Positions 22,319 to 60,647 of a stretch of 64,000 bases of DNA are shown here, piece after piece. The notes under the pieces are model-generated. The model saw only the letters and a program-made list of their open reading frames with translations, was not told the origin of the DNA and ran no database searches. The stretch's first letter is position 1. Each line of letters begins with the position of its first letter. The DNA is from Lachnospiraceae bacterium (GTDB lineage Bacteria > Bacillota > Clostridia > Lachnospirales > Lachnospiraceae), in the NCBI GenBank assembly GCA_024691015.1, contig JAILOD010000104.1:2525-66524 (forward strand), given 5' to 3'. Both the position numbers and the translations under genes were made by a program.

Positions 22319-22411
22319 CAGTTCAAGAAAAGTCCGTTTAAACGATAAGGGCTTATTAACTGCGGGTAAACAGAAATCTGACAAATGCATAAACAGGAGT
22401 CAGGTGGTTTT

Positions 22412-30011: not shown

Positions 30012-30040
30012 TTAACATAATTTTAATTATGTTTTATAAT
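30012..30040 (+). promoter_or_regulatory. Near-consensus sigma-A-type promoter at the head of the 30-kb co-directional block
   Basis: TTAACA, 17-nt spacer, TATAAT. It lies in a ~300-nt very AT-rich divergent intergenic region, ~55 nt upstream of ATG 30096. Confidence 0.5.
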
Positions 30041-41619: not shown

Positions 41620-42210
41620 ATGGCAGATTATCCCATAATCGCAGATGTAAGTGCATATATAGTGAGGACATTGAGGGAAAAGATGTGTCCTGAACCCATC
41701 CCCTCACCGAACAATATAGAGATTTCATCCCCTGCGGCACAGGACGTTGACTATATCGTCGGGCTTTACCTGTACGACATAAAAGAAGATGTAATGCTGT
41801 CGACTCCAAACACCGTACAGAGGGGAAGAGCGCTTTTATCAAAGCCGCCAAGACCATATTCTTTATATTATATGGTTTTTATAAACGGTTCCTCCCAGAT
41901 GGGACTAAAGGCACCGGATATACAAAAGATCATTGGTCGAGTAGCCCAGATAGTTAATGATAAACCATCTGTAAGACCAAATGAACTGCAGTCGTGGTTG
42001 GACACGCAGGAACCTCCGATAGTACTGTCTCAGGCGAAGATAAGTCTGGAGGAAAAGGTAAGGGTGTGGCAGGCTATTAACAAACCATATCAGATAAGCC
42101 TGTTTTATAAGGCGGCACCCGTATTCCTGTCCAGCGGAGAGGTTATTTCCACACCTCGTGTTACAGATGCCAGCTTCAGTCTGCATGTTACTGGAGAAGA
42201 AAGGAGGTAA
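41620..42210 (+). CDS. DUF4255 (Pvc16/Afp16 N-terminal domain) CIS tail-cap-like protein
   Basis: 'LYLYDIKED', 'PPRPYSLYYMV' and 'LSLEEKVRVWQAINKPYQISLFYKAAPVFL' match the DUF4255 pattern. Confidence 0.8.
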   Translation: MADYPIIADVSAYIVRTLREKMCPEPIPSPNNIEISSPAAQDVDYIVGLYLYDIKEDVMLSTPNTVQRGRALLSKPPRPYSLYYMVFINGSSQMGLKAPDIQKIIGRVAQIVNDKPSVRPNELQSWLDTQEPPIVLSQAKISLEEKVRVWQAINKPYQISLFYKAAPVFLSSGEVISTPRVTDASFSLHVTGEERR

Positions 42211-42219
42211 TATTAAAAG

Positions 42220-43074
42220 GTGGACGCTTCTGTTATTCGTGCAAGATTAGACCTTGTTATTAATCTCATCGATACCACAACGGGAGCTGCAGTAAACGAA
42301 ATGAATGTCAGATTTATGAAGGACGGCTGCCCCGTTCGTCCGGAACCGAGAGGCGACGGAAACTTCATCTTCATAAACAGTGGCAGAGAAAACTGTCTCA
42401 TGCACATAGAAGTTTATGGATATGAAAGCACGGACCTTGAGATCAATTATGAAACAATGGACGAACAGATCCCGACCTCGTATGTTTTCCTGATGCCGTC
42501 AGAGAAAACAGCTACAGGAGAGTCAGTCTTTGGTATTTCCGGCAAACTTACTTCTCTTGAATCCATCGAAGGCATTTACCTGAGAAAACCGGTCGCATCA
42601 TACAGCGAATACAATCTCAAGAAAAACATAATGAGCTTGTTTGGCTTTGTACCCGGCATGGAAGTGCGGTTAGATCAGATATTCTACGGAATTCTGAATG
42701 ACGATGGAAATGGTTACGAAATTTTTGAAGTAGTCGGTTCACCCGGACCGCAAAAGGTCAACGTAAGAGATCCAATCCCGGAGAGTGTTAAGGCAAATCA
42801 GAAGATCTACAGAAGGATCTTCGGAAAAGCCGATAAGGAAGGAAACTTCAAATTTCTCATAAGGGACGATGCCACGGTTTTGGAATATGTTCTGAGATTT
42901 GTGGTAGACGGACAGGTGTATTTCAGAAAAATTGATTTCAGAAACACCTACGGAGAGATCGATCTTATGGATGGGGCCGTTAGAGCTGTAGAAGAGCCCG
43001 GACCGGAAGAATCGGAAGATAAGGATCCGAAAGCGGATCAAAAGGCCAAAGAGCCCGGAAAGGATAAAAATTGA
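42220..43074 (+). CDS. Hypothetical protein, beta-sandwich-like N-terminus and K/E/P-rich disordered C-terminus
   Basis: The N-terminal ~90 aa resemble a carboxypeptidase-regulatory-like fold. The tail is 'EEPGPEESEDKDPKADQKAKEPGKDKN'. The GTG start is uncertain. Confidence 0.35.
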   Translation: MDASVIRARLDLVINLIDTTTGAAVNEMNVRFMKDGCPVRPEPRGDGNFIFINSGRENCLMHIEVYGYESTDLEINYETMDEQIPTSYVFLMPSEKTATGESVFGISGKLTSLESIEGIYLRKPVASYSEYNLKKNIMSLFGFVPGMEVRLDQIFYGILNDDGNGYEIFEVVGSPGPQKVNVRDPIPESVKANQKIYRRIFGKADKEGNFKFLIRDDATVLEYVLRFVVDGQVYFRKIDFRNTYGEIDLMDGAVRAVEEPGPEESEDKDPKADQKAKEPGKDKN

Positions 43075-43457
43075 GTCAGGTAGCCACTGTGGGCGCAACT
43101 TGTATGTGCTCATTCGGAACAGCACCGTCACCCTTAAGAGTGACATCACAACAGAAGATCATGTGCGACGGCAAGCCGGCGGGGACCATCCAGGATGCAA
43201 CCCCGGCAAATATGGGACCATTCGGAATGTGTACCACTCCGACAAATCCGGCAGTTGCTGCAGCTACTGCCGCGGCACTTGGAGTTTTAACTCCGCAGCC
43301 CTGTACGGTTACACCGGCAGGAACGTGGATACCCACAAAACCGAAGATCTTAGTCGACGGAAAACCCGTTTTGACACAGGATTGTAAATGTATGTGTGCA
43401 TTCGGCGGTTCAATCTCAATAGTGAATCCGGGACAGGTAAAAACTACAGCGAATTAA
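43071..43457 (+). CDS. DUF4280 PAAR-like spike-tip protein
   Basis: 'CMCSFGTAPSPLRV', 'GPFGMCTTPTNP', 'PCTVTPAGTW' and 'CKCMCAFGGSISIVNPGQ' are present. The TTG start overlaps the upstream stop (TTGA). Confidence 0.75.
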   Translation: MSQVATVGATCMCSFGTAPSPLRVTSQQKIMCDGKPAGTIQDATPANMGPFGMCTTPTNPAVAAATAAALGVLTPQPCTVTPAGTWIPTKPKILVDGKPVLTQDCKCMCAFGGSISIVNPGQVKTTAN

Positions 43458-43482
43458 AATCTAACTAATTTGGAGGTAAGAT

Positions 43483-45195
43483 ATGGCTGAATATTTTTCA
43501 CCAGGTGTATATGTGGAAGAATATGACAATTCTCCCCGTAGCATAGAAGGCGTTGGAACAAGTACAGCGGGCTTTATAGGCTTCGCCGAAAAAGGACCCG
43601 TAGAGGGAGCTCCTCTTCTTGTAACAAATATGAAGAGCTTCAGACAACAGTTTGGCGGCTTTCTTTCAGAGTTTGCTTTTGGCGAATATCGCTTTCTTGC
43701 AAACAGTGTAGAACAGTTCTTCGACAATGGCGGAACCCGTTGTTATGTAATGCGTGTAGCTCCCAAGGATGCTGTAAGCGCAAAGGCAGATAAGGGTATC
43801 CTCACCGTTGAAGCAGCAAATCCCGGTAAGTGGGGTAACAAGATCCAGGTTATAATGGCTCTTGGAAAGAAGCATAAGCTTCAGCTTACAAAGAAAACAG
43901 ATACAGGCTTTATCGCAAAGAATCTCGACGGATTCCGTGAGGGCGATCTCGTGGAATTCCAGGGTACATACAACAAGATCAAGACAATCTTCGATAATGA
44001 GGTAACCTTCGAAGAAAAGCTTCCCGATTCTGCAGTTGATGCAGGTATAGTTCCCAAGAATCTTCTCTATTTAGTAACGGTAGACATATCAGTGAAATAT
44101 GGAGATGATGTAGAGAACTACTCGGAGCTTTCATTCAATATGGCTTCACCCCGTTACATCGATGCAAAGCTTGCAACAAGCAATCTTGTAAAGGTTCAGG
44201 TTAAGCCTGTGGAAAAAGCAGGAAATCCTGTCGAAAGTATTTTCGGTAAGGGCAACACAAGCGGAATGTTCGTTCTTGAAGGTGGTTCAGACGGCTCAAT
44301 GGCAAAGGTTAATTCAGGAACCTTTATCGGAGAGGACAACGGCCCCGGAAAGAGAACAGGTATTCAGGCATTCCTTGAGAACAATACAGTCAGCATGATG
44401 GCAATACCCGGTATCACAACTCCCGAGATCATCGTAGCACTCGTAGCACATTGTGAGAACCTTCGTTCACGCTTTGCAGTTATCGATATGCCCGGCGAGA
44501 TGACAAAGACCGCAGATCTGATCCAGTACAGACAGATCATCGATTCGACCTATGCTGCTATGTATCATCCCTGGATCCAGGTTTATGATCGTTCTTCCAA
44601 CAAGCTTGATTACATCCCTCCTTCAGGAGCTGTAATGGGTATCTATTCAAGAACCGATGTAAACCGTGGTGTACACAAGGCTCCCGCAAACGAAGTTATC
44701 TTCTGTACGGGACTTAAGGTTAACTACACAAAGGATGAGCAGGATGTACTTAATCCCGAAGGGATCAACCTTATCCGTGCACTGCCCGGACAGGGGATCA
44801 GAGTATGGGGTGCCCGTACAGCTTCCAGCAATTCCAACTTCAAATATGTCAACGTCAGACGTCTCTTCATCTTTGTCGAAGAGTCGATCAAGGCAAATAC
44901 CAACTGGGTTGTATTCGAACCCAACGATGCATCACTCTGGCAGAGAGTTTCACTTACGATATCCAATTTCCTGGATAATCTTTGGAGAAACGGAATGCTT
45001 GCCGGTGATTCGGTTTCAGACAGCTACTTCGTAGAGATCGGTGCTTCTACAATGAGCAGAGACGATATCATGAACGGAAGGCTTATCTGTAACATCGGTA
45101 TTGCTCCTTCGAGACCTGCTGAATTCGTTATCTTCCGCGTAACCCAGCATACAGCTGAGGCCGGCGGTGGCGGCGGAGAAGGCGAAGAAGGTTGA
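43483..45195 (+). CDS. Contractile tail sheath protein
   Basis: GGAGG RBS. The N-terminus 'YFSPGVYVEEYDNSPRSIEGVGTSTAGFIGFAEKGP' and the C-terminal 'GINLIRALPGQGIRVWGARTAS...NVRRLFIFVEESI' are sheath signatures. An unusual G/E tail 'AGGGGGEGEEG' ends the protein. Confidence 0.9.
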   Translation: MAEYFSPGVYVEEYDNSPRSIEGVGTSTAGFIGFAEKGPVEGAPLLVTNMKSFRQQFGGFLSEFAFGEYRFLANSVEQFFDNGGTRCYVMRVAPKDAVSAKADKGILTVEAANPGKWGNKIQVIMALGKKHKLQLTKKTDTGFIAKNLDGFREGDLVEFQGTYNKIKTIFDNEVTFEEKLPDSAVDAGIVPKNLLYLVTVDISVKYGDDVENYSELSFNMASPRYIDAKLATSNLVKVQVKPVEKAGNPVESIFGKGNTSGMFVLEGGSDGSMAKVNSGTFIGEDNGPGKRTGIQAFLENNTVSMMAIPGITTPEIIVALVAHCENLRSRFAVIDMPGEMTKTADLIQYRQIIDSTYAAMYHPWIQVYDRSSNKLDYIPPSGAVMGIYSRTDVNRGVHKAPANEVIFCTGLKVNYTKDEQDVLNPEGINLIRALPGQGIRVWGARTASSNSNFKYVNVRRLFIFVEESIKANTNWVVFEPNDASLWQRVSLTISNFLDNLWRNGMLAGDSVSDSYFVEIGASTMSRDDIMNGRLICNIGIAPSRPAEFVIFRVTQHTAEAGGGGGEGEEG

Positions 45196-45236
45196 TCGGC
45201 GGCGTAAACATTAAATGAGAAAGGAAGATTTAAACT

Positions 45237-45734
45237 ATGGCTGATGCATATAAAAATGACAAAGGTTCAGATTATCCGTTAACCAAAATGAACTTCCTTG
45301 TCACTGTATCCACTATAGCAGGAACGGCTGCTTTCAGTGAAGTGACAGGGGTTGAAGGAACAGTCGATGTTATCGAATTCAGACAGGGTAATTCGGGTTC
45401 ACTTGCACCCGTAAAGATTCCGGGACTTGTTAAGCACGGAAATGTAACCCTGAAGATGGGATACATCATCAACAGCCCGTTCAAGACCTGGATACAGGAA
45501 TGTGTATCCGAAGTAAGAGGTCAGATACCGAGACAGGAGGTTACGATCGAGCTTATCGATATTAACCCCGGTGCTCCCGCACAGCTGGTAACCTCAGCAA
45601 CAGGTACCAGACAGTGGACATTAAAGAATGCATGGGTAACCAAATATTCGGCTCCCGATCTTGATGCGAAGACAAGCGATGTCGCAATCGAGAGTGTGGA
45701 GATCGCTTACGAGGAACTGGTTATTCCCAACTAA
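45237..45734 (+). CDS. Tail tube protein (T4 gp19-type / Afp1-like)
   Basis: 'MNFLVTVSTIAGTAAFSEVTGVEGTVDVIEFRQGNS...GNVTLKMGYI...FKTWIQ' matches the conserved phage-tail-region tube pattern. Confidence 0.85.
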   Translation: MADAYKNDKGSDYPLTKMNFLVTVSTIAGTAAFSEVTGVEGTVDVIEFRQGNSGSLAPVKIPGLVKHGNVTLKMGYIINSPFKTWIQECVSEVRGQIPRQEVTIELIDINPGAPAQLVTSATGTRQWTLKNAWVTKYSAPDLDAKTSDVAIESVEIAYEELVIPN

Positions 45735-45745
45735 AGTGTACTTTA

Positions 45746-45939
45746 TTACAATTCAGTGGCCTTTCAGACCACTGAATTGTAACGCACTTTGCCAATGAAA
45801 AATCGCCTTCGGCGATGGGCAAAGTGCCACCTTCCTACTGTAAAGCCCCGTAGCCACGCAGCTTGTGCATGGCTCGGGTCTGAACAGTAACTGTACTTTA
45901 CATTAATGCTTATGTTTCCGGAGGGGACGCCCTCCGGAA
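45746..45939 (+). promoter_or_regulatory. Array of four strong RNA hairpins after the tube gene (candidate attenuator or mRNA-stability element)
   Basis: H1 is a 14-bp perfect stem (45746-45759 / 45769-45782). H2 is a 10-bp stem (45784-45793 / 45818-45827) enclosing a 6-bp hairpin. H3 is a ~9-bp stem (45847-45856 / 45870-45878). H4 is a 10-bp perfect stem (45916-45925 / 45930-45939). None is followed directly by a clean U-run. Confidence 0.55.
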
Positions 45940-45975
45940 GACGTAAGCTTTTAGTGCTTATTTAGAAAGATTTTT

Positions 45976-46004
45976 TATATACGTGCTTTTATTCCTGATA
46001 TAAT
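45976..46004 (+). promoter_or_regulatory. Candidate internal promoter with extended -10
   Basis: TGaTATAAT at 45996-46004 with a weak -35 (TATATA), ~50 nt upstream of ATG 46053. Confidence 0.3.
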
Positions 46005-46052
46005 AAATAAAAACCCTTATATAAAAGATCTTTAAAAAGGAGAGTTTAATAA

Positions 46053-46415
46053 ATGGAAACGATCTATGATTTTACATTACCCAAGGGCTATATCGACGGC
46101 TCGGGAGAGCTTCACAAGAGAGGAAAGATGAGGCTTGCGACCGCCGGTGATGAGATTTCGGCAACCAGAGACCCGAGAGTTCTTTCAAACCCTTCGTATC
46201 TGACCATTGTTATATTAAGCAAGGTGGTTACAGAGCTGGAGGGAATGGATGCCATAACGGCAACTACCATAGAACGTCTCTTTACGGCAGATCTGGCCTT
46301 TCTGCAGGACATGTATCAGAGGATCAACGATATCGAGGCTCCCGTGATGCATTGTGTATGTCCCGATTGCGGCAAGGAGTTTGATATGCCCATAAATTTT
46401 ACACAGGAGGGTTAA
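46053..46415 (+). CDS. Conserved small CIS protein, putative tail-assembly chaperone
   Basis: GGAG RBS. 'FTLPKGYIDGSGELHKRGKMRLATAGDEISATRDPRV...ERLFTADLAFLQDMYQRIN' resembles the small protein that I recall following tube genes in eCIS loci. The C-terminus carries 'HCVCPDCGKEF'. Confidence 0.55.
   Translation: METIYDFTLPKGYIDGSGELHKRGKMRLATAGDEISATRDPRVLSNPSYLTIVILSKVVTELEGMDAITATTIERLFTADLAFLQDMYQRINDIEAPVMHCVCPDCGKEFDMPINFTQEG
46394..46400 (+). other. Candidate -1 programmed frameshift heptamer A_AAT_TTT
   Basis: It has X_XXY_YYZ geometry in the zero frame of ORF 46053-46415, 13 nt before its stop. The -1 frame is open from 46385 and runs into the downstream conserved small ORF. Confidence 0.3.
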
Positions 46416-46447
46416 GGCTTTATCCCAAAGACGATCTCTACAGGGAA

Positions 46448-46612
46448 ATGTCCTTTATTTCCTACTATTTTCACTGGAGCGAGGAAGAGGTATCGAAGCT
46501 CGACCACGTAAGCAGAAGAAGGTGGTGTAAAGAGATCTCAGAGATAAACAAGAACCTGAATCCCTCAAAGGAAAAGAAGGAAAAGAGTATTTTTGATCTT
46601 AAACCGGGTTAA
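46448..46612 (+). CDS. Small conserved CIS-associated protein ('YYFHWS...RRRW' family; DUF6760-like from memory)
   Basis: It is not in the ORF track because it has only 54 codons from ATG 46448. The product is 'MSFISYYFHWSEEEVSKLDHVSRRRWCKEISEINKN...'. The same frame is open for 21 more codons upstream ('...LYPKDDLYRE') without any ATG, GTG or TTG. Confidence 0.55.
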   Translation: MSFISYYFHWSEEEVSKLDHVSRRRWCKEISEINKNLNPSKEKKEKSIFDLKPG

Positions 46613-46662
46613 AGCCCGGGGAGGATCTCATTCGTATAAAACATACAGGATGGTGATTTATT

Positions 46663-48060
46663 ATGGGTTTAGGCGCAGCATTAGATTATATAACCGATAA
46701 CGACAGGGCAGGGTATGAACCGCTTCCCAGTTATAACTTTGTAATGCAGGTAGAAGGTTTGTTTTACATACCCTTAAAGAGCGTAAGAGCATTTACGAAG
46801 GAAAATGAATACGAATACATACAGGAAGGCGGAGTTAACGATTATGTTCATATGATCAGAAAGTCCATCTCAAAGCCGTTTACCTTCCAGGTTGAAAAAT
46901 ATGTAGGTCAGAGAAATATCGATCAGTTTGATCCCATTGCGAACGGTACAGAGCTTATGCTTCCCATATTTCTCTGGGTATACAGAAGCACGGCCAAGAG
47001 AGGCTTTTCCGATAAAGACAGTGCACCTGAATATTTTGGAAGGCTCTACACCTTTACCGGCTGCAGTGTTACCAATAAGGAATACGGAGAACTGAATGCC
47101 GAAAAGAGCGGACTCTTAACCGAGGTTACTACCATTGCCTACAGAGAGCTGGTAGTTATCACAAATATCTTTGAGAGCACATCAGTCGGTGAAGTGTTTG
47201 ATTTCAAGAAGGCAGCCGAGGCAGCGGCATCCGGAAAGCTTGTATTGCCTGATAATCCGAGGATCGATCCCAAAGTTAAGAATGATAAGGATCTTTACAT
47301 TAACGATAAGCTGATGATGGCTTATAACTGGAACAATCCCGGCAAGATTCCCACTGATCCGAAGACCGGAAAGCCGGTACGTAATTCCGAAAACCTCTGG
47401 GAGATGAACAATAATGGCGTAGCACAGCTTGAGCCCAAGAATGAATATGTTTTAAATGAATTTGATAAAAATAAGATGGATCTTGTTTTGGATAAGAGGA
47501 AAATGAAGGCTTACGCAGACAAGGACAGTAAGGATAAATGGGACATGAAGGCTGAGACCGGAGGAGTTGCAAGACCGGCCAAACAAATGAAAACAAAGCC
47601 GGATCTCATTCCAATGTCACCCTATGACGGAATGAAGCAGAAGCTGAATTATTCCAGCGGCAGCGCCGAAGATGACAGGCAATGGGGATTCCCGGAAAGT
47701 CAGTATGACCTCTCAATGTCCGCCAAGGACAGGGCCACTGTTGCAAAGGGCAAAGGCAAGCAGAGTGCGGCACAGCCCAAGAACGCCGGAACTTATGCGG
47801 AAACGGTTGGCTGGCCCAAGGATTCAAGGCGTCAGATGCCCGATAAGGAAAACACAAATCCCCCTGCAGAACCGAGGATATGGGGCATGCCTGAATCGCA
47901 GTACGATCTTCATACACCTACGGCGGAAATGTATAATACCGCACAGGGCACGGGCAGAAGAAGTGCTATCGTACCGGCAAATGCCGGAGAAATGGCCGAA
48001 ACGGTAATGTGGCCGCCCACAAGAAGAGCTCTTATGGCAGATGCACTTGATAATAAATGA
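46663..48060 (+). CDS. Second tube-family protein (Afp5-like) with ~280-aa C-terminal extension containing a two-unit repeat
   Basis: The N-terminus 'YNFVMQVEGLFYIPLKSVRAFTKENEYEYIQEGGVNDYVHMIRKSISKPFTFQVEKYVG' is gp19-type. The C-terminus repeats 'WG(F/M)PESQYDL...NAG..AETV.WP' with a 198-nt period, starting at 47683 and 47881. Confidence 0.7.
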   Translation: MGLGAALDYITDNDRAGYEPLPSYNFVMQVEGLFYIPLKSVRAFTKENEYEYIQEGGVNDYVHMIRKSISKPFTFQVEKYVGQRNIDQFDPIANGTELMLPIFLWVYRSTAKRGFSDKDSAPEYFGRLYTFTGCSVTNKEYGELNAEKSGLLTEVTTIAYRELVVITNIFESTSVGEVFDFKKAAEAAASGKLVLPDNPRIDPKVKNDKDLYINDKLMMAYNWNNPGKIPTDPKTGKPVRNSENLWEMNNNGVAQLEPKNEYVLNEFDKNKMDLVLDKRKMKAYADKDSKDKWDMKAETGGVARPAKQMKTKPDLIPMSPYDGMKQKLNYSSGSAEDDRQWGFPESQYDLSMSAKDRATVAKGKGKQSAAQPKNAGTYAETVGWPKDSRRQMPDKENTNPPAEPRIWGMPESQYDLHTPTAEMYNTAQGTGRRSAIVPANAGEMAETVMWPPTRRALMADALDNK

Positions 48061-48076
48061 TCACAGGGTTTAACAG

Positions 48077-49960
48077 ATGCTTAAGATAAAGGCTCCGATC
48101 GAGCTAAAGGTAAAAACTTCATATGTTTCGAGCAGTGAGGATTTTTATCATCGCATTACCGGCAATTATGAGCTTTTAACGGCCGGTATTACAAGCGAGG
48201 ATCTTTTGCATGTCGTTAATACACCTCCGGAGATCTACATAGCCGAAGGCGAGGGAATGACCAGCATCATAAATTCCAACCGTTCCACCGAGCTGAATTA
48301 CCAGAAGGTTGATATATTAAACAACGTACTGAACAGGGTAATGGTAAGCGCAAAAGGCGAGCTCACCTATCAGGACAGGGTTTTTATCACGGATGCCCTG
48401 TACAAGCTGGGGATCAGGGATGACAGAAGGTTTATGGAACAGGTTTATGAAATAATGAACGAGACCAGAAACCTCAATAAGATCGTGGATGTATTCGTTC
48501 AGAATTTCGGAGATGTCAGGAATTTCAGGGAAGAGATAAACGAGATCGCCAATACCTTAAACAGAAACGAATACGAAGCCGTAAGGGAAGAAAACGACAA
48601 CAGGCTCTATGAGAGCATCTTAAACCGCTTAAATACAGGGGCCGTTTATCAGATAGTTTCAAATTTTAACACAAGTGTTGACGAAAATACCTTTGAGTCA
48701 AACGAATATGCTCTTTCCGAGCAGACTTATATGGCTCTGAACATGCTCTCCGACAGGATAATAGGCATGGCACGCGGGGAAAGAGTACCGCTGGTATATA
48801 ATAACGAGAATGTCTATGAAGAAGACATTGAAAACAATCTGATAGAAGAGAGTACGGAAACAAACATGGTCACAAGTGCCGTGCTTCTTGACATGATAAG
48901 AAATATTTACAATACCGGTTTTGCAAGGTTCAACAATACCACCAATCAGTATTACAGCTTTGCAAATACCCTGTACCGTTCATCGGATAACACTCTGCAG
49001 AGGCTTAAGATAGAGACCGCAAATGCGATAAATTATTACAACGAATTAAACGAAGTTCAGAATATAATAGAAAACGAGATAACCGAGATGGAACCGGCGC
49101 CACTCCCTCCTTCCCGCGAAGAGGAAGAGATAGCTCTCGGAGAAGAGATAAACCGGATCAATATCAGAAATGAGGAAAACAGAAAGAGATATCAGGAATA
49201 TGTAAGAAATATAGAGAGAAGATTCCAAAGAAGCCGGCCGAGAAAGAGCCCCAAGGACACCATGAGGGATGCGGCCAGGGCATTGGAGAATCCGGAAGAG
49301 GTTGTTCAACAGCTTAAGGAAGAAGAGGGTCTTCAGGATGAGATACGTAAGGAGATCTACAGGGAGACTATGAAATTCTTCCCCGAAAATACCAGAAAGA
49401 TCTTCGAGATCGTTGAGCAGTATTATGCCGGAGATAACACCAATATCATAAACGGGAATTTAAGCGTGAACAATATAAGCCAGCTTATCTACGATATTGA
49501 GCGGGTAGAAGAGGACAACAGGCGGATAGAAGAGTTAAACAATATCAAAAACGAATCCACCACTCAGATAGAAAATGTAAGAAAGCTTATCGATACTAAA
49601 GCACCGTCCGTTCCGGGTGAAGCACCTTCGGCTGATATGTATTCTTCACCGGCCTCTACGGTTCACAGAGTAAATGAATCGGTTTCAAGCGAAGAGGTTC
49701 TGGAGGCTATGGAAAACTATCAGAGAAACATCCGCCGTCAGATGAAGGAAGAAATAAAGGATGAGATAGTAACCGAAAACAGAACGGCAACAAACAGGGT
49801 TGTAAATGAGATAAACACAGTTCAGAATTACGATACAAACCTGGATATACAGGGCCTTATCGCAGACGGAGTAAGAAGAGAGATAGGCAGTATTTCCGAT
49901 CAGGTATATAACAGGATAGAGAGACAGATGATGAATGAGAAGAGCAGACGAGGGTTTTAA
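48077..49960 (+). CDS. Putative tape-measure / length-determining protein
   Basis: It occupies the slot between the tube/chaperone genes and the tube-initiator genes. It is a 627-aa E/N/R/I-rich, predicted helical protein with no TM and no enzymatic motif. The call rests on position and composition only. Confidence 0.35.
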   Translation: MLKIKAPIELKVKTSYVSSSEDFYHRITGNYELLTAGITSEDLLHVVNTPPEIYIAEGEGMTSIINSNRSTELNYQKVDILNNVLNRVMVSAKGELTYQDRVFITDALYKLGIRDDRRFMEQVYEIMNETRNLNKIVDVFVQNFGDVRNFREEINEIANTLNRNEYEAVREENDNRLYESILNRLNTGAVYQIVSNFNTSVDENTFESNEYALSEQTYMALNMLSDRIIGMARGERVPLVYNNENVYEEDIENNLIEESTETNMVTSAVLLDMIRNIYNTGFARFNNTTNQYYSFANTLYRSSDNTLQRLKIETANAINYYNELNEVQNIIENEITEMEPAPLPPSREEEEIALGEEINRINIRNEENRKRYQEYVRNIERRFQRSRPRKSPKDTMRDAARALENPEEVVQQLKEEEGLQDEIRKEIYRETMKFFPENTRKIFEIVEQYYAGDNTNIINGNLSVNNISQLIYDIERVEEDNRRIEELNNIKNESTTQIENVRKLIDTKAPSVPGEAPSADMYSSPASTVHRVNESVSSEEVLEAMENYQRNIRRQMKEEIKDEIVTENRTATNRVVNEINTVQNYDTNLDIQGLIADGVRREIGSISDQVYNRIERQMMNEKSRRGF

Positions 49961-49962
49961 TC

Positions 49963-50823
49963 ATGGTAGTTGATAAGGCGCTTTTATGTATAGTGGATGT
50001 AGACAAGGTAAATGACGAGACGCCAATAAAGAATATTGTTGATGATGCAAACATGCTTTCTTCATTGTTGCGTGGCTATGGAACGGCACATCACAAGATG
50101 TCTACCGCAAAATTTCTTGAGGACGTTAAGGGAACGCTTACATCCGCCTTGAATCCCAAAACCATGGATGGTGCAAGGGGAGATGTAGGTTCGTTTGATC
50201 CCAACTGGTACAAGGAAGCATTTGCAACTGTTTCGTATTTTAAGGCTTTTGAGGTACAGTACAATCCGTCGAGTATTCACTTTGATACAGCTGCCGGTAA
50301 ACAGGAAAACTTAAGAAAACAGCAGGGAAATTCATTTGAAGATATGATCTACTCGCAGAACTTCTCCGGTATCACAAATATGAGCCTCCAGCTCGTGTTT
50401 GACGATACCACGGTAAGTGATGCTTTTATGCTGCAGAATACACAGCCGAACCTAAGCAACACAAAATCAATGGTTCAGTCCCTTGTGGGGGGAGAGCATT
50501 CGGTAAGACAGAAGGTGGACGCTCTTGTAGGTCTTCTTACGGATCCGCTTTACAGGCAGGTAGTCTTCTTCTGGGGAGACATGAATTTCAGAGGTGAGCT
50601 TGCCCGTGTTAATGCAAGGTATTCAATGTTCAATACGCAGGGAAACCCGGTAAGAGCTACTGTAGACCTTTTCATCTCACAGGATTCGGATAAAAAGGAT
50701 TACGAATATGATGAGCTGCAGTGGATGAAAGCATTCGGGAAGGTATTTAACGAAAAAACCGGAATCGGAGGCTTCGGCGGAAGCAGCGTGTTAAACGGAA
50801 ATCTTTTGAATATAAAGCTTTAA
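49963..50823 (+). CDS. CIS tube-initiator family protein (Afp7/Pvc7 N-domain-like), paralog 1
   Basis: 'FEVQYNPSSIHF' and 'VVFFWGDMNFRGELARVNARYSMFNTQGNPVRATVDLFI' match the FNPe...WG...G.P.RA pattern of CIS_tube proteins. Confidence 0.65.
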   Translation: MVVDKALLCIVDVDKVNDETPIKNIVDDANMLSSLLRGYGTAHHKMSTAKFLEDVKGTLTSALNPKTMDGARGDVGSFDPNWYKEAFATVSYFKAFEVQYNPSSIHFDTAAGKQENLRKQQGNSFEDMIYSQNFSGITNMSLQLVFDDTTVSDAFMLQNTQPNLSNTKSMVQSLVGGEHSVRQKVDALVGLLTDPLYRQVVFFWGDMNFRGELARVNARYSMFNTQGNPVRATVDLFISQDSDKKDYEYDELQWMKAFGKVFNEKTGIGGFGGSSVLNGNLLNIKL

Positions 50824-50836
50824 GGAGGGATCGGTT

Positions 50837-51658
50837 ATGGACTTTGGAAGTAATGTGGCCAATATGGCCAAATCAATGGTCGGCTTAACCGCAAAGGCCG
50901 TGATAGAGATAACGGATCTCAGAGGCAGACCTAAAAAAGAAGAAGAGATAGCAAAACTTAAGGAAAATAAGGGAGCGGGCTTTTCTGCCGCCGACCTTGC
51001 TTCATCCTTCAATCCCGGATTTGCGAAGAGCTATATCAATAACGTTCTTTTGAATGGAACGGATATCGGATATGCCGGCTTTAAGAATTCAAAAAAGAAA
51101 GTATTTACGGTTCAGTTCAATCCTTCGGAAATAAGGATTGGCGGCTACGCCGGAGGTCGTGTGTCAAAGCTGAGCTTCCAGAACATCGGAAATTCCAAAA
51201 CAGGTGCAGCGGATGCCCGTGTTACCTTTTCGGCAAGGCTTATTTTTGATAAGACAGATACACTGGGGGCATTTCCTTACGATAAATTCAACATGTCTCC
51301 TTCTTCGATCGCAACAGGAGTTGCAAAGCTTGCGAAAAAGGGGGTGGCCGACAGATCGGTGCAGCCTGAGGTTGAAGCCTTTACGGCAGCCTTAAGAGAC
51401 CCGGATTTAAGACTTATATCCTTTATCTGGGGTGATATGAGATACGAGGGAATCTTAAATACCGTGGCAAGCCAATATGCAATGTTCAACACAAACGGCG
51501 AGCCTTGTCGTGCTTTTGTGGATATTACCATAGTCTGTGTTGACGAAGCAGAGCACATCGAATCTGCGGATATCTTCAGAAGACAGGTTAAGGAATTCTT
51601 CGGAAACGGCCTGGATTCCAAGAAGGTTGTTGCCAATATGGGAAAATCATTGCTCTGA
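50837..51658 (+). CDS. CIS tube-initiator family protein, paralog 2
   Basis: 'FTVQFNPSEIRI' and 'ISFIWGDMRYEGILNTVASQYAMFNTNGEPCRAFVDITI' are collinear with the upstream paralog. Confidence 0.65.
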   Translation: MDFGSNVANMAKSMVGLTAKAVIEITDLRGRPKKEEEIAKLKENKGAGFSAADLASSFNPGFAKSYINNVLLNGTDIGYAGFKNSKKKVFTVQFNPSEIRIGGYAGGRVSKLSFQNIGNSKTGAADARVTFSARLIFDKTDTLGAFPYDKFNMSPSSIATGVAKLAKKGVADRSVQPEVEAFTAALRDPDLRLISFIWGDMRYEGILNTVASQYAMFNTNGEPCRAFVDITIVCVDEAEHIESADIFRRQVKEFFGNGLDSKKVVANMGKSLL

Positions 51659-51700
51659 TATTTTTGATCATAAAGGCCATAAAGGAGAAAGCAGCTATAA

Positions 51701-52849
51701 ATGGCTACATATAATTTTGAAGAACTGAAAAAGAAATACGAGAAGTTTTACAAGCCCATTTATTCAGTAAAGGTTGGGGGGAATGAGCTGTTCGGTGGAA
51801 AGCTTCATTACGACCTTGAGAGGATATCGATAGATCTGACCAGTGATTACAAGGCCAGTATCGCAACCATCTGTATTAACGGTGTATATGATAGCAACAA
51901 GGGAGAATTCAATACTCCGAAGATCAAGAAGATGATCCTTTTGGGAAGCGATATCCTGGTAAGCTTAGGCTACGGTGTCACGATCAAGGAGGTTTTCAGA
52001 GGCTTTATCTCAAAGGTTGATTTTGTCTATGACCTGGCCTTCTATGAAGAGCCTGTGGTTATAATCACTGCTATGGATATAAAGGGCATAATGATGGCAA
52101 ATAATTCTTCCAAAAGGCTTACGGCCAGCTATTATTCGGATGCCGTCAAGGAGATATTCGACCAGCCCGTTTACAGCAATCTGAAAAACAGCGGTATTGT
52201 GGGAAGTTTTGATATCACAAATACTCCCGATAAGCCGCAGGCACAGTCGGGGCAGCCAAAGGATGTCCGTATAGAGATGGTCGGAGAGAGTGATTACGAT
52301 TTTGTGGTAAAGGTTGCAAAACGCTTTAATTACGAATTCTTCTCACAGGGAAAATATGTTTACTTCAGGAAGGCCAAAAGCAGCTCCGAGATGCTGATGG
52401 ATATATCCCCGAATCCCTATGTTTACAGCTATGACGTTTCCTATGACATATCAGGTCTTGTGGGCAAGGTGGATGTCAGGGGAGTGGATATCACAAAGGG
52501 AAAGACCATTACTGCCTCGGCAAAGAATTCAAATAAATTATCAAGCGGAAATAAGGCGAAGGCTCTTATATCCAAACAGACCAAGGTTTATGTGGATGCA
52601 GCGGTTGAAACAAAGGATGACGCACAGTTTCTGGCAACATCGCTTCTTGATGATATGGCCTACCGTTTAGGCTCCTTAAGACTTAATATGATAGGGCTTC
52701 CCGAGGCTCTTCCGGGGTCGTTCATCAACTTTACGCAGATAGGAACCGGAGTTTCCAATAAGTTTTATATCACGGATGTAAATCACAGTATCAGTAAAAA
52801 CGGAGTATACACCGTTACCCTGCAGGGAAAGAGTGCAGGGGTTATTTAA
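51701..52849 (+). CDS. Late-control gpD-like baseplate hub protein
   Basis: At 382 aa it has a size typical of gpD. It sits directly upstream of the gpV-like spike. The C-terminal 'FYITDVNHSISKNGVYTVTLQG' looks gpD-like. Confidence 0.55.
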   Translation: MATYNFEELKKKYEKFYKPIYSVKVGGNELFGGKLHYDLERISIDLTSDYKASIATICINGVYDSNKGEFNTPKIKKMILLGSDILVSLGYGVTIKEVFRGFISKVDFVYDLAFYEEPVVIITAMDIKGIMMANNSSKRLTASYYSDAVKEIFDQPVYSNLKNSGIVGSFDITNTPDKPQAQSGQPKDVRIEMVGESDYDFVVKVAKRFNYEFFSQGKYVYFRKAKSSSEMLMDISPNPYVYSYDVSYDISGLVGKVDVRGVDITKGKTITASAKNSNKLSSGNKAKALISKQTKVYVDAAVETKDDAQFLATSLLDDMAYRLGSLRLNMIGLPEALPGSFINFTQIGTGVSNKFYITDVNHSISKNGVYTVTLQGKSAGVI

Positions 52850-52860
52850 GGAGAAAATTT

Positions 52861-53673
52861 ATGCCTTTTTTCGATATTATGGACGAGGTGGTAAAACACC
52901 AGGTTGAAAAAAACGAGACAGGAGAGAACAGGATATTCGGAGCGGTCATCGGTCAGGTTACAAAGAATTACGATAAGGAACGCGCAGGTTATATCCAGAT
53001 CTCGATAAACGCCCGTGATTACACCGAGAGCAAGCAGGTGTGGGCGAGGATGGCTTTTCCTTACTCGGGTTCCAAATGGGGAGAATATTTCATCCCCGAA
53101 ATAGGAGACCAGGTAATAGTGGTCTTTGAGCATGGAAACATAGCCCGGCCCTTTGTTGTAGGCTGTATCCCGAAGGACAACGACCAGTTTCTCACCAAGT
53201 CCGTGGATGAAAAGAACAAATTTAAAAAGATAACCACAAAGAACGGAAATACAATAACCTTTGAAGATAATCCCGAAGGCGACGGCGAAAAGGATAAGAT
53301 ATTTATAAACACCTCAAAGGAAGCCAATAAGATACATCTTGATAATGAAAAGAAGATCATTCTTATCTCTGATAAGGAAGGCGAGAACAAGATCGAGATG
53401 AAGAATGAGCAGGGGCAGATGGAGATCATCGCCAAGCAGAAGCTCACAATAAAGGTTGGCGACAATATCAAGATCATTATGAACGGAAGCAACGGCACCA
53501 TTGATATCCAGTCCACTAAGATAAAAGCCGAGGCCTCCAATTCCGTGAATATATCTTCAAACACAAATATGAAGATGGAAGGCGGAAATGTTACCGTAAA
53601 CGGAAATTCGATATTAAAGCTGTCCAGCAGCGGGCCGGTAAGCGTAGAAGGAACACCGGTCAAGCTTGGTTAA
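52861..53673 (+). CDS. Baseplate spike protein (gpV / gp5 OB-fold + beta-helix)
   Basis: 'GAVIGQVTKNYDKERAGYIQISI...WARMAFPYSGSKWGEYFIPEIGDQVIVVFEHGNIARPFVVGCI' is followed by repetitive beta-helix segments. Confidence 0.8.
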   Translation: MPFFDIMDEVVKHQVEKNETGENRIFGAVIGQVTKNYDKERAGYIQISINARDYTESKQVWARMAFPYSGSKWGEYFIPEIGDQVIVVFEHGNIARPFVVGCIPKDNDQFLTKSVDEKNKFKKITTKNGNTITFEDNPEGDGEKDKIFINTSKEANKIHLDNEKKIILISDKEGENKIEMKNEQGQMEIIAKQKLTIKVGDNIKIIMNGSNGTIDIQSTKIKAEASNSVNISSNTNMKMEGGNVTVNGNSILKLSSSGPVSVEGTPVKLG

Positions 53674-53755
53674 ATATATCTCAGCGGGATGCCCCGCCTC
53701 TAAGAAAGGTGTAGGCAGGAAAAAGCGAGACTTGAATTGAATCAGGAGATGAAAA

Positions 53756-54235
53756 ATGGCAAATGAACTTGATTTTTTAGGGACGGGAATGAAGTTTCCG
53801 CCGGAAATAGATAAGGCAACGGGGCGGTTCGCAACCTCCTCCGGAGCAAAAAGTGTTAAGGAATCGGTATATCTTATCCTTATGACACAGCTAACAGAGC
53901 GTATAACAAGGCCGGATTTCGGTACGGATATCATGGGTTACACCTTTATGGATACGGGAAGCACTATCCTGGCTATGATGAGAAGGGATATAACGGAAAG
54001 TCTTATGAGACAGGAGCCGCGGATATCCGATGTCGAGATAAATACGGATCTTTCAGAAAAGTCCGGATATGTTATGATCTACATCGACTATACGCTGGCC
54101 GGGACCAACCAGAGGGACAATATGGTATTTCCGTTCTACTTAAATACCGATGTTCCCGAGGAAGAGGAAGAGGAAGAATTCTACGAACCGGAGGTTATTG
54201 ATGTGGATATGACCGAAGGGACAGAAAATACTTAA
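53756..54235 (+). CDS. GPW/gp25 family baseplate wedge protein
   Basis: 'FLGTGMKFPPEID...SVKESVYLILMTQLTERITRPDFGTDIMGYTF' matches the gp25 pattern. Confidence 0.85.
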   Translation: MANELDFLGTGMKFPPEIDKATGRFATSSGAKSVKESVYLILMTQLTERITRPDFGTDIMGYTFMDTGSTILAMMRRDITESLMRQEPRISDVEINTDLSEKSGYVMIYIDYTLAGTNQRDNMVFPFYLNTDVPEEEEEEEFYEPEVIDVDMTEGTENT

Positions 54236-54254
54236 AGTATAAGGATCTTAAAGA

Positions 54255-57323: not shown

Positions 57324-57347
57324 GCAGGATTTCGGAGGATATAAGAG

Positions 57348-59444: not shown

Positions 59445-59462
59445 GGGAGATAATAATATAAA

Positions 59463-60566
59463 ATGGCCGGTATTCAATATACGATCAGAAAAAACAGATA
59501 CAGAAGAAGCTATATAGAGGGCTTTAAGGTTACCGAAGACGATGTCCTTGTTTTTGATCAGGATTCGTTATATCACGGAATCTTCCTGGATCCTCTGGAT
59601 GGCATAGAGCGTGACCGTTACTGGGGACGCCTTGCAATGAAGCTTACCATGGATGAGGACATGGCCTGCTATGTCTATGTGCTTGCGATAAACGATCTTG
59701 TTATTGTGGATGATAATGATCAGATCTTTGATATAGAGGCATTTCTGAAGGATCCGGAGAACTCGATGATCCAAAAGGTTAATATGATTCAGAGACTGGG
59801 TGCAAAAAGGTTTGTAAACCGTGATGATATTCTTCTTTATGATCTGAGCGGTAAAAATCTCCTGATAGGCATAGAAATACTCGGGCAGGGTGACGCAAGG
59901 ATCGAAAATTTAAGGATCAATGCGGTCGGCGATAACTTTATGAATACCTTCCCCGAGGTTTACAGGGAGAGGAATTCCTTCTTCCACAGATACATGTCCA
60001 TTTTTTCCAGTATTTACAATGACTTTCAGGATGAGATAGATAATGTGCATGAGCTTCTGGATCTGGATACCTGTTCAACCGAGCTCTTAGAGCTTTACGG
60101 AAGCTGGATGGGAATAGATCTTCAGGGCGGATATCTTTCTGAGGACATTCTGCGTACTCTGGTCAAGGAAGGATATAACCTGAACAAGATGAAGGGTACC
60201 AGAAAGGTTATCGAGAGGATAATGGAGATCGTTCTGGGAGAAAAGGTTCTGGTCCTCGAGCACAATTCCATCCGCAGTTATTTAAAGAATGATGATTCAG
60301 AGATACCTCCGGGAATAAAGGAGGGTGGCATATATGATGTTTCGGTGCTTGTAAAGCAGCACATAAACGAAGAGCTGCAGCACAGGCTTGTATATCTTCT
60401 TAATCAGTTTAAGCCTCTTAGAACCCGAATTAATATAATAGAGATGGATAAGAACGCACAGGTTGATTCAAACAGCTATCTGGACCTTAATGCAACGATC
60501 CCCGAAGAAAAGAATGTGGTATTGGATGAAGAGTCTGTACTTGGTTCAGTATTGACGTTAGAGTAG
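59463..60566 (+). CDS. Phage tail protein I-like (gpI family) baseplate protein
   Basis: 'FPEVYRERNSFFHRYMSIFSSIYNDFQDEIDNVHELLDLDTCSTELLELYGSWMGIDL...MKGTRKVIERIMEIVLG' matches the conserved phage-tail gpI-type domain. Confidence 0.75.
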   Translation: MAGIQYTIRKNRYRRSYIEGFKVTEDDVLVFDQDSLYHGIFLDPLDGIERDRYWGRLAMKLTMDEDMACYVYVLAINDLVIVDDNDQIFDIEAFLKDPENSMIQKVNMIQRLGAKRFVNRDDILLYDLSGKNLLIGIEILGQGDARIENLRINAVGDNFMNTFPEVYRERNSFFHRYMSIFSSIYNDFQDEIDNVHELLDLDTCSTELLELYGSWMGIDLQGGYLSEDILRTLVKEGYNLNKMKGTRKVIERIMEIVLGEKVLVLEHNSIRSYLKNDDSEIPPGIKEGGIYDVSVLVKQHINEELQHRLVYLLNQFKPLRTRINIIEMDKNAQVDSNSYLDLNATIPEEKNVVLDEESVLGSVLTLE

Positions 60567-60609
60567 GTTTAATGTTATAAATAAATGATTATGCGTTGAT
60601 ACATTAATT

Positions 60610-60637
60610 CTCTGTATGTACAGAGAGCAGGTTTTTT
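60610..60637 (+). terminator. Weak terminator-like hairpin at the end of the CIS block
   Basis: 6-bp stem CTCTGT / ACAGAG with a 4-nt loop. The T6 run follows only after a 6-nt spacer. Confidence 0.35.
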
Positions 60638-60647
60638 GAGGATTTTT

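Follow-up and report, generated by a model that had tools for sequence, protein, structure and literature searches.

A contractile injection system of Lachnospiraceae related to the haloarchaeal and Streptomyces systems and inherited together with a predicted membrane module

The contractile injection systems (CISs) closest to the one described here have been studied in haloarchaea, Streptomyces and Anabaena. Our subject is a CIS gene cluster of a Lachnospiraceae bacterium, located in a 64-kb stretch of contig JAILOD010000104.1 (assembly GCA_024691015.1) that we call the window and from whose first nucleotide all positions are counted. The haloarchaeal system is the “archaeal type VI secretion system (T6SS)” of Halogeometricum borinquense, which belongs to clade IIa of the extracellular CISs (eCISs; the name of the clade is that used in PMC11566945, after dbeCIS). 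Its particle was found membrane-bound in situ by cryo-electron tomography (cryo-ET), and the Bacillota hold the nearest relatives of its Cis11 (PMC11566945). The CIS of Streptomyces coelicolor, CIS-Sc (type IId; PMC10066040), needs for its function CisA, a membrane protein encoded in the cluster itself, the cytoplasmic N-terminus of which is predicted to contact the baseplate (PMC12237407). The tCIS of Anabaena is intracellular and membrane-anchored by fibre-like baseplate proteins; the N-terminal domain of its Cis13 binds the baseplate and the C-terminus anchors the particle in the membrane (PMC8894136). Finally, Afp and PVC (Serratia, Photorhabdus; PDB 6RAO, 6J0B) share with the window the core of the machine, i.e., the sheath, gp19-type tube, Pvc16_N, CIS_tube, VgrG-type spike, PAAR-like tip, gp25 and Baseplate_J proteins.

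A preliminary description, made from the sequence alone, had proposed a stand-alone chromosomal CIS of Afp/PVC type in a Clostridia-class genome, comprising 17 co-directional open reading frames (ORFs) between 41620 and 60566. The ORF listing agrees with this count and extent, all 17 being on the + strand. The gaps among them range from -4 to 82 nt, with the exception of one 318-nt spacer on the 3' side of the tube gene, and ribosome-binding sites of the GGAG/AGGAG type precede most of them. Searches with the profiles of Pfam, NCBIfam and PHROG upheld nearly every part that had been named (Table 1) and, together with hhalign, provided family matches for 15 of the 17 products. The DUF4255 and DUF4280 assignments passed their hidden Markov model thresholds, and CIS_tube did so twice. 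The two CIS_tube products (49963 and 50837) are paralogs, as had been suspected (hhalign probability 100%). The second member of the tube family, proposed at 46663, aligns with that family over residues 13–165 (hhalign 94.8%, E 5e-8) and also matches CIS5_fam, weakly. For Cis11a (54255) the Baseplate_J score was just below the Pfam cut-off. With cap, tip, single sheath, tube and baseplate parts together, the locus is, judging from its predicted products, a complete CIS.

The type is another matter. Compared with the structures in PDB, the sheath was most similar to that of Halogeometricum (9EZM, E 2.5e-112), followed by those of Streptomyces (8BKY/8BL4, E ~1e-92) and then by PVC, tCIS, AFP and AlgoCIS (E 1e-43 to 1e-53), with R-pyocin (E 7e-16) and T4 (E 2e-8) far behind. 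It is thus much closer to the Cis2 of Halogeometricum and Streptomyces than to Pvc2 or Afp2/3 (E 1e-43 to 1e-49), and the designation Afp/PVC-type had to be abandoned: it does not fit because there is a single sheath gene, a Tail_P2_I protein that is not an Afp12 homolog, and no ATPase. None of the marks of clade I (Afp/PVC), that is, sheath paralogs, an Afp12 homolog or an adenovirus-type fibre, was found in the unit; Afp and PVC, unlike the window, have three sheath paralogs, Afp12 homologs, eBAP1 adenovirus-type fibres, the Afp15/Pvc15 ATPase and downstream toxin genes. Two marks of the Bacillota/haloarchaeal clade are present, namely the pair formed by a chaperone and DUF6760 next to the tube and sheath genes, and two cis11 genes. 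By sequence similarity the CIS is one of the Bacillota/haloarchaeal lineage, related to the intracellular CISs of Streptomyces and Anabaena, and not of the Afp/PVC lineage, the sheath being placed by similarity ranking and not by a tree.

The comparison with the haloarchaeal CIS, which has the closest solved sheath (38% identity to the Haloferax and Natrialba loci), extends to the two cis11 genes, to the N-terminal domain of Cis13 (36% identity, locus L063) and to the chaperone/DUF6760 pair, found beside the sheath and tube genes in the same -1 frame. Both the haloarchaeal producer and the host of the window have a single-membrane envelope. Unlike the window, the haloarchaeal cluster has an AAA+ ATPase, lies on a plasmid and includes toxin-immunity pairs; a tape measure, for which the window locus has a candidate, was not found there. 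CIS-Sc (8BKY/8BL4/9GTP) is like the window in its sheath (the second closest), its Cis11, its single sheath gene and its Gram-positive host. However, it has an ATPase and no fibre, while the window has a Cis13-like fibre or adaptor, three membrane proteins and two secreted ones. In L076, the single actinobacterial locus studied, we did not detect the chaperone/DUF6760 pair. The tCIS (7B5H) has, as the window does, a Cis11 with extra domains, but its sheath is more distant (E 2.6e-47).

A scan for the sheath, with one genome per species, returned 80 loci. The closest relatives (77–81% identical) are found in Butyrivibrio and other Lachnospiraceae, which supports the earlier placement of a chromosomal, stand-alone, non-prophage CIS in a Clostridia-class genome and is the reason why we label the source a Butyrivibrio-like Lachnospiraceae. 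Sheaths 61–81% identical occur in Lachnospiraceae, Dorea sp. D27, Clostridium sp. CAG:632, Oscillibacter and Agathobaculum, and at ~47–53% there are many other Bacillota, including Faecalibacterium, Roseburia, Ruminococcus, Paenibacillus, Brevibacillus and Syntrophomonas. One locus at 50% belongs to a metagenome-assembled genome (MAG) labelled Bacteroidales. Haloarchaea, ANME-2, Chloroflexi, Acidobacteriota, Proteobacteria and Actinobacteria follow at 35–44%.

A myovirus prophage in decay, or a bactericidal R-type tailocin like the diffocins and PBSX that is released by lysis, would also present itself as a headless set of contractile tail genes; the locus has in addition a phage-style chaperone pair with a frameshift (see below) and a hub that is weakly YQBQ-like/XkdQ-type. 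However, the best phage sheath, that of Bacillus phage BCD7, is only 36% identical (50,697 phage records), the best sheath on a viral contig 47% (2.9 million IMG/VR contigs), against 62–81% for relatives in Lachnospiraceae genomes, and the E values of the pyocin and CIS sheaths, 7e-16 and 2.5e-112, are far apart. Pvc16_N, CIS_tube (twice) and DUF4280 all score above their thresholds. Among the ORFs scanned in the 64-kb window we found no capsid, portal, terminase, integrase, holin or endolysin families; neither a repressor nor any att-like feature was seen there, and housekeeping genes make up the flanks. Sheath similarity and the absence of lysis, head and integration genes in these 64 kb effectively refute a phage origin of this kind, which we consider barely conceivable. 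The view that the cluster is not a prophage, already taken in the preliminary description, therefore holds.

What did not hold was the extent of the cluster. The 11.5 kb upstream of the cap gene had been taken for a neutral flank, and this is wrong: six genes in it are part of the conserved unit. When all window proteins were compared with 81 loci by tblastn, the order Cis13-like, 285-aa, 841-aa, MORN, TolC-like, 896-aa, cap, 284-aa, PAAR-like and sheath was found wherever sheath identity was 61% or more and the upstream sequence was long enough, i.e., in Lachnospiraceae, Dorea, Clostridium sp. CAG:632, Oscillibacter and Agathobaculum. Five loci at ~52% sheath identity (Oscillospiraceae, Lachnoclostridium) keep the Cis13-like, 285-aa and MORN genes but not those of the two secreted proteins, and a homolog of the 841-aa protein of ~890 aa, also with four transmembrane helices, is present in three of the five (L038, L046 and L053). 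The MORN protein was present in 18 loci. The block starts with the Cis13-like gene in the window and in L162, L163 and L164 (the last three reached via homologs of the 285-aa or TolC-like proteins), while the upstream flanks of these four genomes differ: PolC; ArgS and a response regulator; NUDIX and ThiF; and, in the window, aroA and tyrA (minus strand, 27361–29788). A promoter-like site precedes the first gene and a terminator-like hairpin closes the run, and the same scan gave no terminator-like site on the + strand between 30096 and 49000. On account of the shared gene order, the differing flanks and the promoter-like and terminator-like sites, we take the predicted functional unit to be the 23 genes from 30096 to 60566.

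That the six upstream genes are instead an unrelated envelope operon, standing beside a 17-gene CIS whose boundaries were right from the start, seems to us improbable. Five of the six proteins do not directly resemble any known CIS part, the loci with ~52% sheath identity lack the TolC-fold and 896-aa proteins, and gaps of 51–91 nt occur inside the run, all of which would suit such an operon. Against it, the first gene bears the N-terminal domain of the CIS13 family, the order is kept over family- and order-level distances with a constant start next to changing flanks, and no terminator-like site was seen on the + strand between 30096 and 49000. Moreover, no module homolog lay apart from a CIS cluster, either among the matches listed, in three look-ups or in the loci; the relatives of the 285-aa protein number 137 (E up to 0.001) and those of the TolC-fold protein 350 (E up to 1e-5) in a collection of 5.8 billion proteins.

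At the loci with ~52% sheath identity an extra gene, absent from the window, lies ahead of the Cis13-like gene (L038, 14–1084; L046, 17–862). Both products have a C-terminal transmembrane helix, and the L038 copy has two domains of the chitobiase/hexosaminidase C-terminal kind (CHB_HEX_C_1/Fn3_assoc); from these features the protein is predicted to be surface-exposed and of carbohydrate-binding type.

The proteins of the upstream module were examined one by one, with transmembrane helices taken from a hydropathy scan and orientations from the positive-inside rule. The first, of 619 aa, matched NCBIfam CIS13_fam over residues 8–146 (E 5e-25, below the family cut-off), and its family profile gave a marginal match to All3314, the crown protein of tCIS (residues 18–86, E 0.083). 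About 470 residues follow this anchor domain. The Cis13 of tCIS has its own transmembrane helix; the window protein has none, and the gene of a tail-anchored protein starts 3 nt downstream. This second protein, of 285 aa, has a cytoplasmic domain of kinase fold (AlphaFold2 model, pLDDT 88.5, pTM 0.75). Its best Foldseek matches were PknB/Stk1 of Staphylococcus aureus (TM-score 0.57–0.60) and the kinase-homology domain of Rv3910; there were 1230 matches at E < 1e-3, and the 50 listed were nearly all kinase or kinase-homology domains. All or nearly all of the 38 homologs aligned lack the catalytic motifs (the GxGxxG Gly-rich loop, the beta3 Lys, HRD and DFG), and the only match of [HY]RD type sits in a helix of the C-lobe. 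With these motifs missing, the 285-aa protein is to be regarded as a pseudokinase. In its C-terminus (32700–32816 in the window), the ~25 residues after the transmembrane helix, predicted to be extracellular, contain the best-conserved motif of the protein, N.FK.IGTE.L, and a related motif is retained in the Oscillospiraceae homologs. Such a conserved tail suggests a partner outside the cell.

The 841-aa protein looks like a sensor. Its homologs of ~890 aa in the Oscillospiraceae and Lachnoclostridium loci were recovered by hmmsearch at E 1e-44 to 1e-54 and contain a HAMP domain above the Pfam cut-off. A class III cyclase output domain was considered for it and dropped, as Pfam (E up to 5) and a family profile compared with PDB gave only HAMP-like matches; no relative of the output domain was detected. 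The repeats of the MORN protein are predicted to lie outside the cell. For the TolC-fold protein the top 44 Foldseek matches were all outer-membrane factors of the TolC/OprM/CusC group (probability 1.00, E 9e-9, TMt 0.54–0.60, ~480 aligned columns), and model and alignments agree on the alpha-helical tunnel with an internal structural repeat that defines the family; NCBI labels its homologs “TolC family protein [Butyrivibrio]”. In TolC the 12-strand barrel is made of four long strands per protomer. No such membrane-spanning barrel is present in the AlphaFold2 model, where the strands at 86–94 and 319–328 are only 3–4 residues long, and the protein ends in two C-terminal beta-sandwich domains. 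Butyrivibrio has a Gram-positive-type wall and no outer membrane, and vestigial barrel strands fit a host of this kind. The 896-aa protein gave no Pfam, NCBIfam, PHROG, PADLOC or PDB match, and Pfam applied to six members of its family gave only scattered matches to single members. The upstream genes were also considered as a possible defence system and this was discarded, since PADLOC returned nothing meaningful.

A further particularity of the locus is the missing ATPase. No ORF with an AAA+-type Walker A motif was found in the 64 kb, and 16 Cis15-like queries from related loci gave no tblastn match in the window below E 0.3. Of the loci in which the sheath gene is preceded by at least 8 kb of sequence, 18 had the module without an ATPase, 17 an ATPase without the module, 21 neither in range and none both. 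The ATPase, mostly directly upstream of the cap or the sheath in those 17 loci, and the module were thus together in 0 of the 35 loci having either one, although the 18 module loci make up only two or three sub-lineages and are phylogenetically non-independent, and for this reason the exclusion is a pattern and not a statistic. As no ATPase of the Cis15 or ClpV type was found in the window, the device is probably single-shot.

From all this we lean, with some reserve, towards a CIS built in the cytoplasm and docked at the membrane as the most likely reading. The particle would be assembled in the cytoplasm, with the chaperone and its -1 fusion assisting the tape measure and the tube. The baseplate would consist of the split VgrG with its PAAR-like tip, two CIS_tube rings, gp25, the two Cis11 paralogs and the Tail_P2_I adaptor; the sheath would polymerise round the tube and the Pvc16_N cap would close the particle. 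We infer that it is not released, and that the co-inherited envelope module fastens it, by the baseplate, to the cytoplasmic membrane of the producing cell. The Cis13-like protein, as a TssK-like adaptor, would grip the baseplate by its N-terminal domain through the TssG-like Tail_P2_I adaptor, and would itself be held at the membrane, or triggered from it, by the pseudokinase, the HAMP-family protein with four transmembrane helices and the MORN protein. Of these, the pseudokinase and the HAMP-family protein would offer cytoplasmic docking or trigger surfaces coupled to domains outside. The Butyrivibrio clade would add two Sec-exported proteins of the wall zone, the barrel-less TolC-fold and the 896-aa proteins. 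On contraction, the tube would be driven, with the split VgrG and the PAAR-like tip, across the producer's own membrane and thin wall. The target may be a neighbour, as it is for Halogeometricum, or else the producer, which is the case in Streptomyces.

Part of the case for the membrane link is that three proteins of the module carry transmembrane helices together with sizeable cytoplasmic domains. The logic of CisA is the same as that proposed here for the pseudokinase; both are bitopic, but CisA (taken from its description) has a substrate-binding-like outer domain, whereas the window protein has a kinase-fold domain at the N-terminus. The likeness to a canonical T6SS lies in the proposed docking of a cytoplasmic tail, in the IglG-like tip and in the TssE-like initiator, and a membrane protein of kinase fold recalls the PpkA pathway of T6SSs, which we mention as a lead only. 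No Pfam or NCBIfam families for TssJLM, TssA, a TssB/C-type sheath or ClpV were found among the 23 products; unlike a canonical T6SS, the locus encodes chaperones of phage type as well as a cap and a candidate tape measure, and its membrane proteins are unrelated to TssL/M. The combination of a Tail_P2_I adaptor with anchors of the eBAP3 type has been described as TssG/TssK-like (PMC12923769), the window fibre being only provisionally compared with this type.

Several observations weigh against docking. The Cis13-like protein lacks a transmembrane helix, and the region beyond its anchor is, by eye, possibly Ig-like. Proteins with related N-terminal anchors have been read as extracellular fibres that bind receptors, and one of this class, from Paenibacillus, directed PVC particles to human cells (PMC12923769). 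In the haloarchaeal relative the ATPase is retained and the putative anchor is another protein, with six transmembrane helices, and tblastn found no homologs of the module proteins in the haloarchaeal loci except for the N-terminal domain of Cis13. We recognised neither toxin nor immunity genes in the cluster. The non-independence of the module loci counts here as well, and the ATPase could be encoded elsewhere in the genome. Nor can the TolC-fold protein act as a simple conduit: established structures give the TolC tunnel an inner diameter of ~3.5 nm, too narrow for a CIS tube, and this role was rejected.

Some of these points would be expected of a classical eCIS, in which lysis of a subpopulation frees the particles, the Cis13-like fibre binds a bacterium, a rumen protozoon or a host cell, and the module serves for regulation, wall release or self-protection. 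A released particle with a receptor-binding fibre is also how the fibre catalogue of 2026 (PMC12923769) interprets Bacillota loci. The parts list is that of Bacillota loci catalogued as eCISs (PMC8213781, PMC12923769), an anchor followed by a long region without a membrane helix and akin to a fibre that has retargeted PVC is what such a particle would carry, and a cap with a tape-measure candidate is a feature of particles of fixed length. On the other hand, no lysis genes exist in the 64 kb, the Afp15/Pvc15-type ATPase of characterised eCISs is not there, and the closest studied relatives of the sheath are all intracellular or membrane-bound (PMC11566945, PMC10066040, PMC8894136). A membrane-anchored cytoplasmic pseudokinase and a HAMP-family transducer, co-inherited with the gene of a baseplate adaptor, are also hard to motivate for a free particle. 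We regard free release as less likely than docking, but as a serious rival to it.

One step of the proposed assembly concerns the chaperone pair. The chaperone (48–83% identity across the loci, out to haloarchaea and ANME-2) is followed by the ORF of the “YYFHWS” mini-protein, which is DUF6760. The Pfam match to this family begins at position 15 of the profile, and no start codon exists between the slippery heptamer and the ATG, even though a conserved peptide, KFYxGGxxLYPxxELYxE, is encoded there. The 66 related loci with both genes all have DUF6760 in the -1 frame relative to the chaperone, and a canonical in-frame X_XXY_YYZ heptamer was present in 59 of them, from Butyrivibrio to haloarchaea and ANME-2 (mostly AAATTTT, otherwise TTTTTTN, CCCTTTT, TTTGGGG or GGGAAAY). 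DUF6760 is thus probably a -1 frameshift extension of the tail-assembly chaperone of the CIS, made as a fusion. A programmed -1 frameshift in the tail chaperones of phages, G/GT of lambda and E/E+E' of P2, was reportedly described by Xu, Hendrix and Duda in 2004. As in phage G/GT, two overlapping ORFs stand between the genes of the tube and the tape measure, with the second in the -1 frame and the heptamer near the end of the first; unlike there, the pair belongs to a CIS and a Cis5-like gene separates it from the tape-measure candidate. We found no mention of DUF6760 or of a frameshifted chaperone in a CIS in the literature searched. Such a frameshift would link CIS assembly to a classic phage mechanism and would explain the orphan family DUF6760.

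Other products of the core are less easily assigned. The tape measure proposed at 48077 fits by its position, and profile support for it was not obtained (no family match in Pfam, PHROG or NCBIfam). The 284-aa protein (42220) had no match in the same three collections and no usable one in PDB, and is kept in 23 loci at 23–51% identity. The C-terminal extension of the Cis5-like protein (47170–48060) is hypervariable, as seen by comparison with L011, L012, L015, L002, L010, L024 and L164. Its relatives measure in total ~153–945 aa, those without the extension being 153–167 aa and the long forms 790–945 aa. The extension consists of degenerate tryptophan-containing repeats that differ from strain to strain, and a common C-terminal motif of the type WPPTRRAxMADALK is found in most of the long forms. 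The extension may be cargo packed in the lumen or a ruler-like element. As for the 318-nt spacer, no Rfam family reached its gathering score there or anywhere else in the window, and the equivalent gap is only ~60–100 nt in Butyrivibrio sp. AE2015 and DSM 10294. It could be an element stabilising or attenuating the transcript, or an inserted repeat.

Table 1. Genes and other features of the predicted unit, in window coordinates
Feature	Coordinates	Strand	Remarks
Promoter-like site TTAACA-17-TATAAT, 11/12	30012..30040	+	consensus match only; precedes first gene
Cis13/Cis19-like baseplate fibre or adaptor, 619 aa	30096..31955	+	N-terminal anchor domain; no transmembrane helix
Tail-anchored membrane pseudokinase, 285 aa	31959..32816	+	cytoplasmic kinase-fold domain; transmembrane helix 239-257
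Sensor-like membrane protein, 841 aa	32908..35433	+	four transmembrane helices; two extracytoplasmic loops; ~330-aa cytoplasmic C-terminal domain
MORN-repeat single-pass membrane protein, 411 aa	35507..36742	+	Pfam MORN, phrog_7324; transmembrane helix 68-93
Sec-exported TolC-fold protein, 681 aa	36826..38871	+	signal-like N-terminus; Pfam OEP E 5e-10; AlphaFold2 pLDDT 78
Sec-exported protein, 896 aa	38878..41568	+	signal-like N-terminus; coiled-coil/acidic middle
Cap/tail terminator, Cis16	41620..42210	+	Pvc16_N (= DUF4255), Pfam E 5e-29
284-aa protein between cap and PAAR-like genes	42220..43074	+	conserved; role not assigned by family
PAAR-like spike tip, Cis10, IglG-like	43071..43457	+	DUF4280, Pfam E 3e-30; NCBIfam T6SS_IglG E 6e-14
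Contractile sheath, Cis2, single copy	43483..45195	+	Phage_sheath_1 and Phage_sheath_1C; PDB 9EZM E 2.5e-112, 8BKY E 2.7e-94
Inner tube, Cis1	45237..45734	+	Phage_T4_gp19 E 1.7e-28; TIGR02241 above cut-off
Structured intergenic spacer, 318 nt	45735..46052	+	five hairpins; minimum free energy -125.9 kcal/mol, z -9.4; inverted repeats
Tail-assembly-chaperone-like protein, 120 aa	46053..46415	+	C-terminal CxxC..CxxC motif; phrog_508 E 1.3e-7
Slippery heptamer A_AAT_TTT	46394..46400	+	in chaperone frame, 19 nt before stop
DUF6760 ORF	46448..46612	+	-1 frame relative to chaperone; frame open from 46385
Cis5-like tube adaptor (residues 1-165)	46663..48060	+	300-aa repeat-rich C-terminal extension
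Tape-measure candidate, Cis14-like, 627 aa	48077..49960	+	by position only: after chaperone pair/Cis5, before Cis7
CIS_tube paralog 1, Cis7-type tube initiator	49963..50823	+	Pfam E 6.8e-18
CIS_tube paralog 2	50837..51658	+	Pfam E 8.8e-13
Hub, Cis8a, gpD/gp27-like N-terminal half of split VgrG	51701..52849	+	phrog_52 E 1.8e-15; VgrG_rel model 151-346
Spike, Cis8b, gpV/gp5-like C-terminal half of split VgrG	52861..53673	+	Phage_base_V E 4.8e-19; VgrG_rel model 367-530
gp25/TssE-like sheath initiator, Cis9	53756..54235	+	GPW_gp25 E 2.8e-16
Baseplate wedge Cis11a, 1022 aa	54255..57323	+	extra domains; TIGR02243 E 2e-22; Streptomyces Cis11 (9GTP) E 2e-9
Baseplate wedge Cis11b, 698 aa	57348..59444	+	Baseplate_J E 4.6e-7; TIGR02243 E 8e-24
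Tail_P2_I/Cis12-like wedge adaptor	59463..60566	+	last gene of unit; Pfam E 3.7e-8; CIS12_fam partial
Terminator-like hairpin and T-run	60608..60636	+	closes unit

The genomic setting is that of a bacterial chromosome, with ~43–46% G+C and a GC skew that is positive throughout the 64 kb. Housekeeping genes, among them fakA, recG, pheS/pheT and queA, fill the first 30 kb, and aroA and tyrA form the immediate upstream flank of the unit. The host had been called spore-forming, and this was not confirmed: the sole hints are a Spore_YtfJ homolog (7576–7977, E 2e-23), the only gene of sporulation type seen in the window, and a sub-threshold SpoIIAA-like STAS match. Two GGDEF (diguanylate cyclase) genes with long N-terminal regions are found in tandem at 22385–25830, ~4 kb upstream of the cluster. 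Past the terminator-like site, at 60636–61612, a STAS gene of the anti-sigma-antagonist type overlaps the gene of an FtsE/MacB-type ABC ATPase. STAS homologs (30–36% identity) are located 5–8 kb upstream of the sheath in four loci of the ATPase type (L029, L031, L054 and L061; Paenibacillus, Faecalibacterium and others). A regulatory link between the STAS gene and the CIS is possible from these neighbourhoods, although the positions are inconsistent across loci and the terminator-like site intervenes. Seven window proteins, looked up among 15 billion proteins, were all singletons at 90% identity, and the source species is therefore apparently without a close sequenced relative in that collection.

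The lineage had been considered poorly charted in the preliminary description. As regards gene content this no longer applies, as Bacillota loci have been catalogued (PMC8213781, PMC12923769) and named as the nearest relatives of the haloarchaeal T6SS (PMC11566945). As regards function it does, since no bacterial member of the clade was found characterised in the literature searched. The same literature gave no description of the membrane module, of its exclusivity with the ATPase, or of the pseudokinase and the barrel-less TolC-fold protein as linked to CISs. To our knowledge, the only Gram-positive CIS that has been studied, that of Streptomyces, kills its own producer, and the only “T6SS” of a single-membrane cell is archaeal. 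A rumen preprint reported eCISs in ~1% of rumen genomes and placed an Acutalibacteraceae locus in subtype IIb, and a metagenome survey found human-gut CISs almost only in Bacteroidota (PMC12210884). Given the gut and rumen genera and MAGs among the related loci (Dorea, Faecalibacterium, Roseburia, Oscillibacter), the clade looks under-counted.

The cultured Butyrivibrio sp. DSM 10294 (L164, GCA_028539135.1) has this cluster too, from the Cis13-like gene to the Cis5-like one. This strain is among those sequenced and imaged in a rumen cryo-ET survey (PMC10117717), and tomograms able to show its particles may already exist. Homologs are also carried by Butyrivibrio sp. AE2015, AE2032, AE3004 and AE3009. 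Going further, we suggest tentatively, and as something rather doubtful at present, that these loci encode a Gram-positive counterpart of the archaeal T6SS, which would act on contact as a contractile weapon or else serve for regulated self-destruction, and which would be widespread among Clostridia of the rumen and the gut (Butyrivibrio, Dorea, Oscillibacter, Agathobaculum). It would be docked to the cytoplasmic membrane by an undescribed envelope complex with a pseudokinase as anchor and a HAMP-family protein as transducer, joined by the MORN protein and the TolC-fold protein without a barrel, and this complex would replace the Cis15 ATPase. By its similarities the locus belongs to a bacterial sister group of the archaeal T6SS and has defined candidates for the anchor and trigger proteins, so that the question of whether a cell-anchored, T6SS-like contractile weapon exists in Gram-positive bacteria becomes testable in cultured rumen strains.

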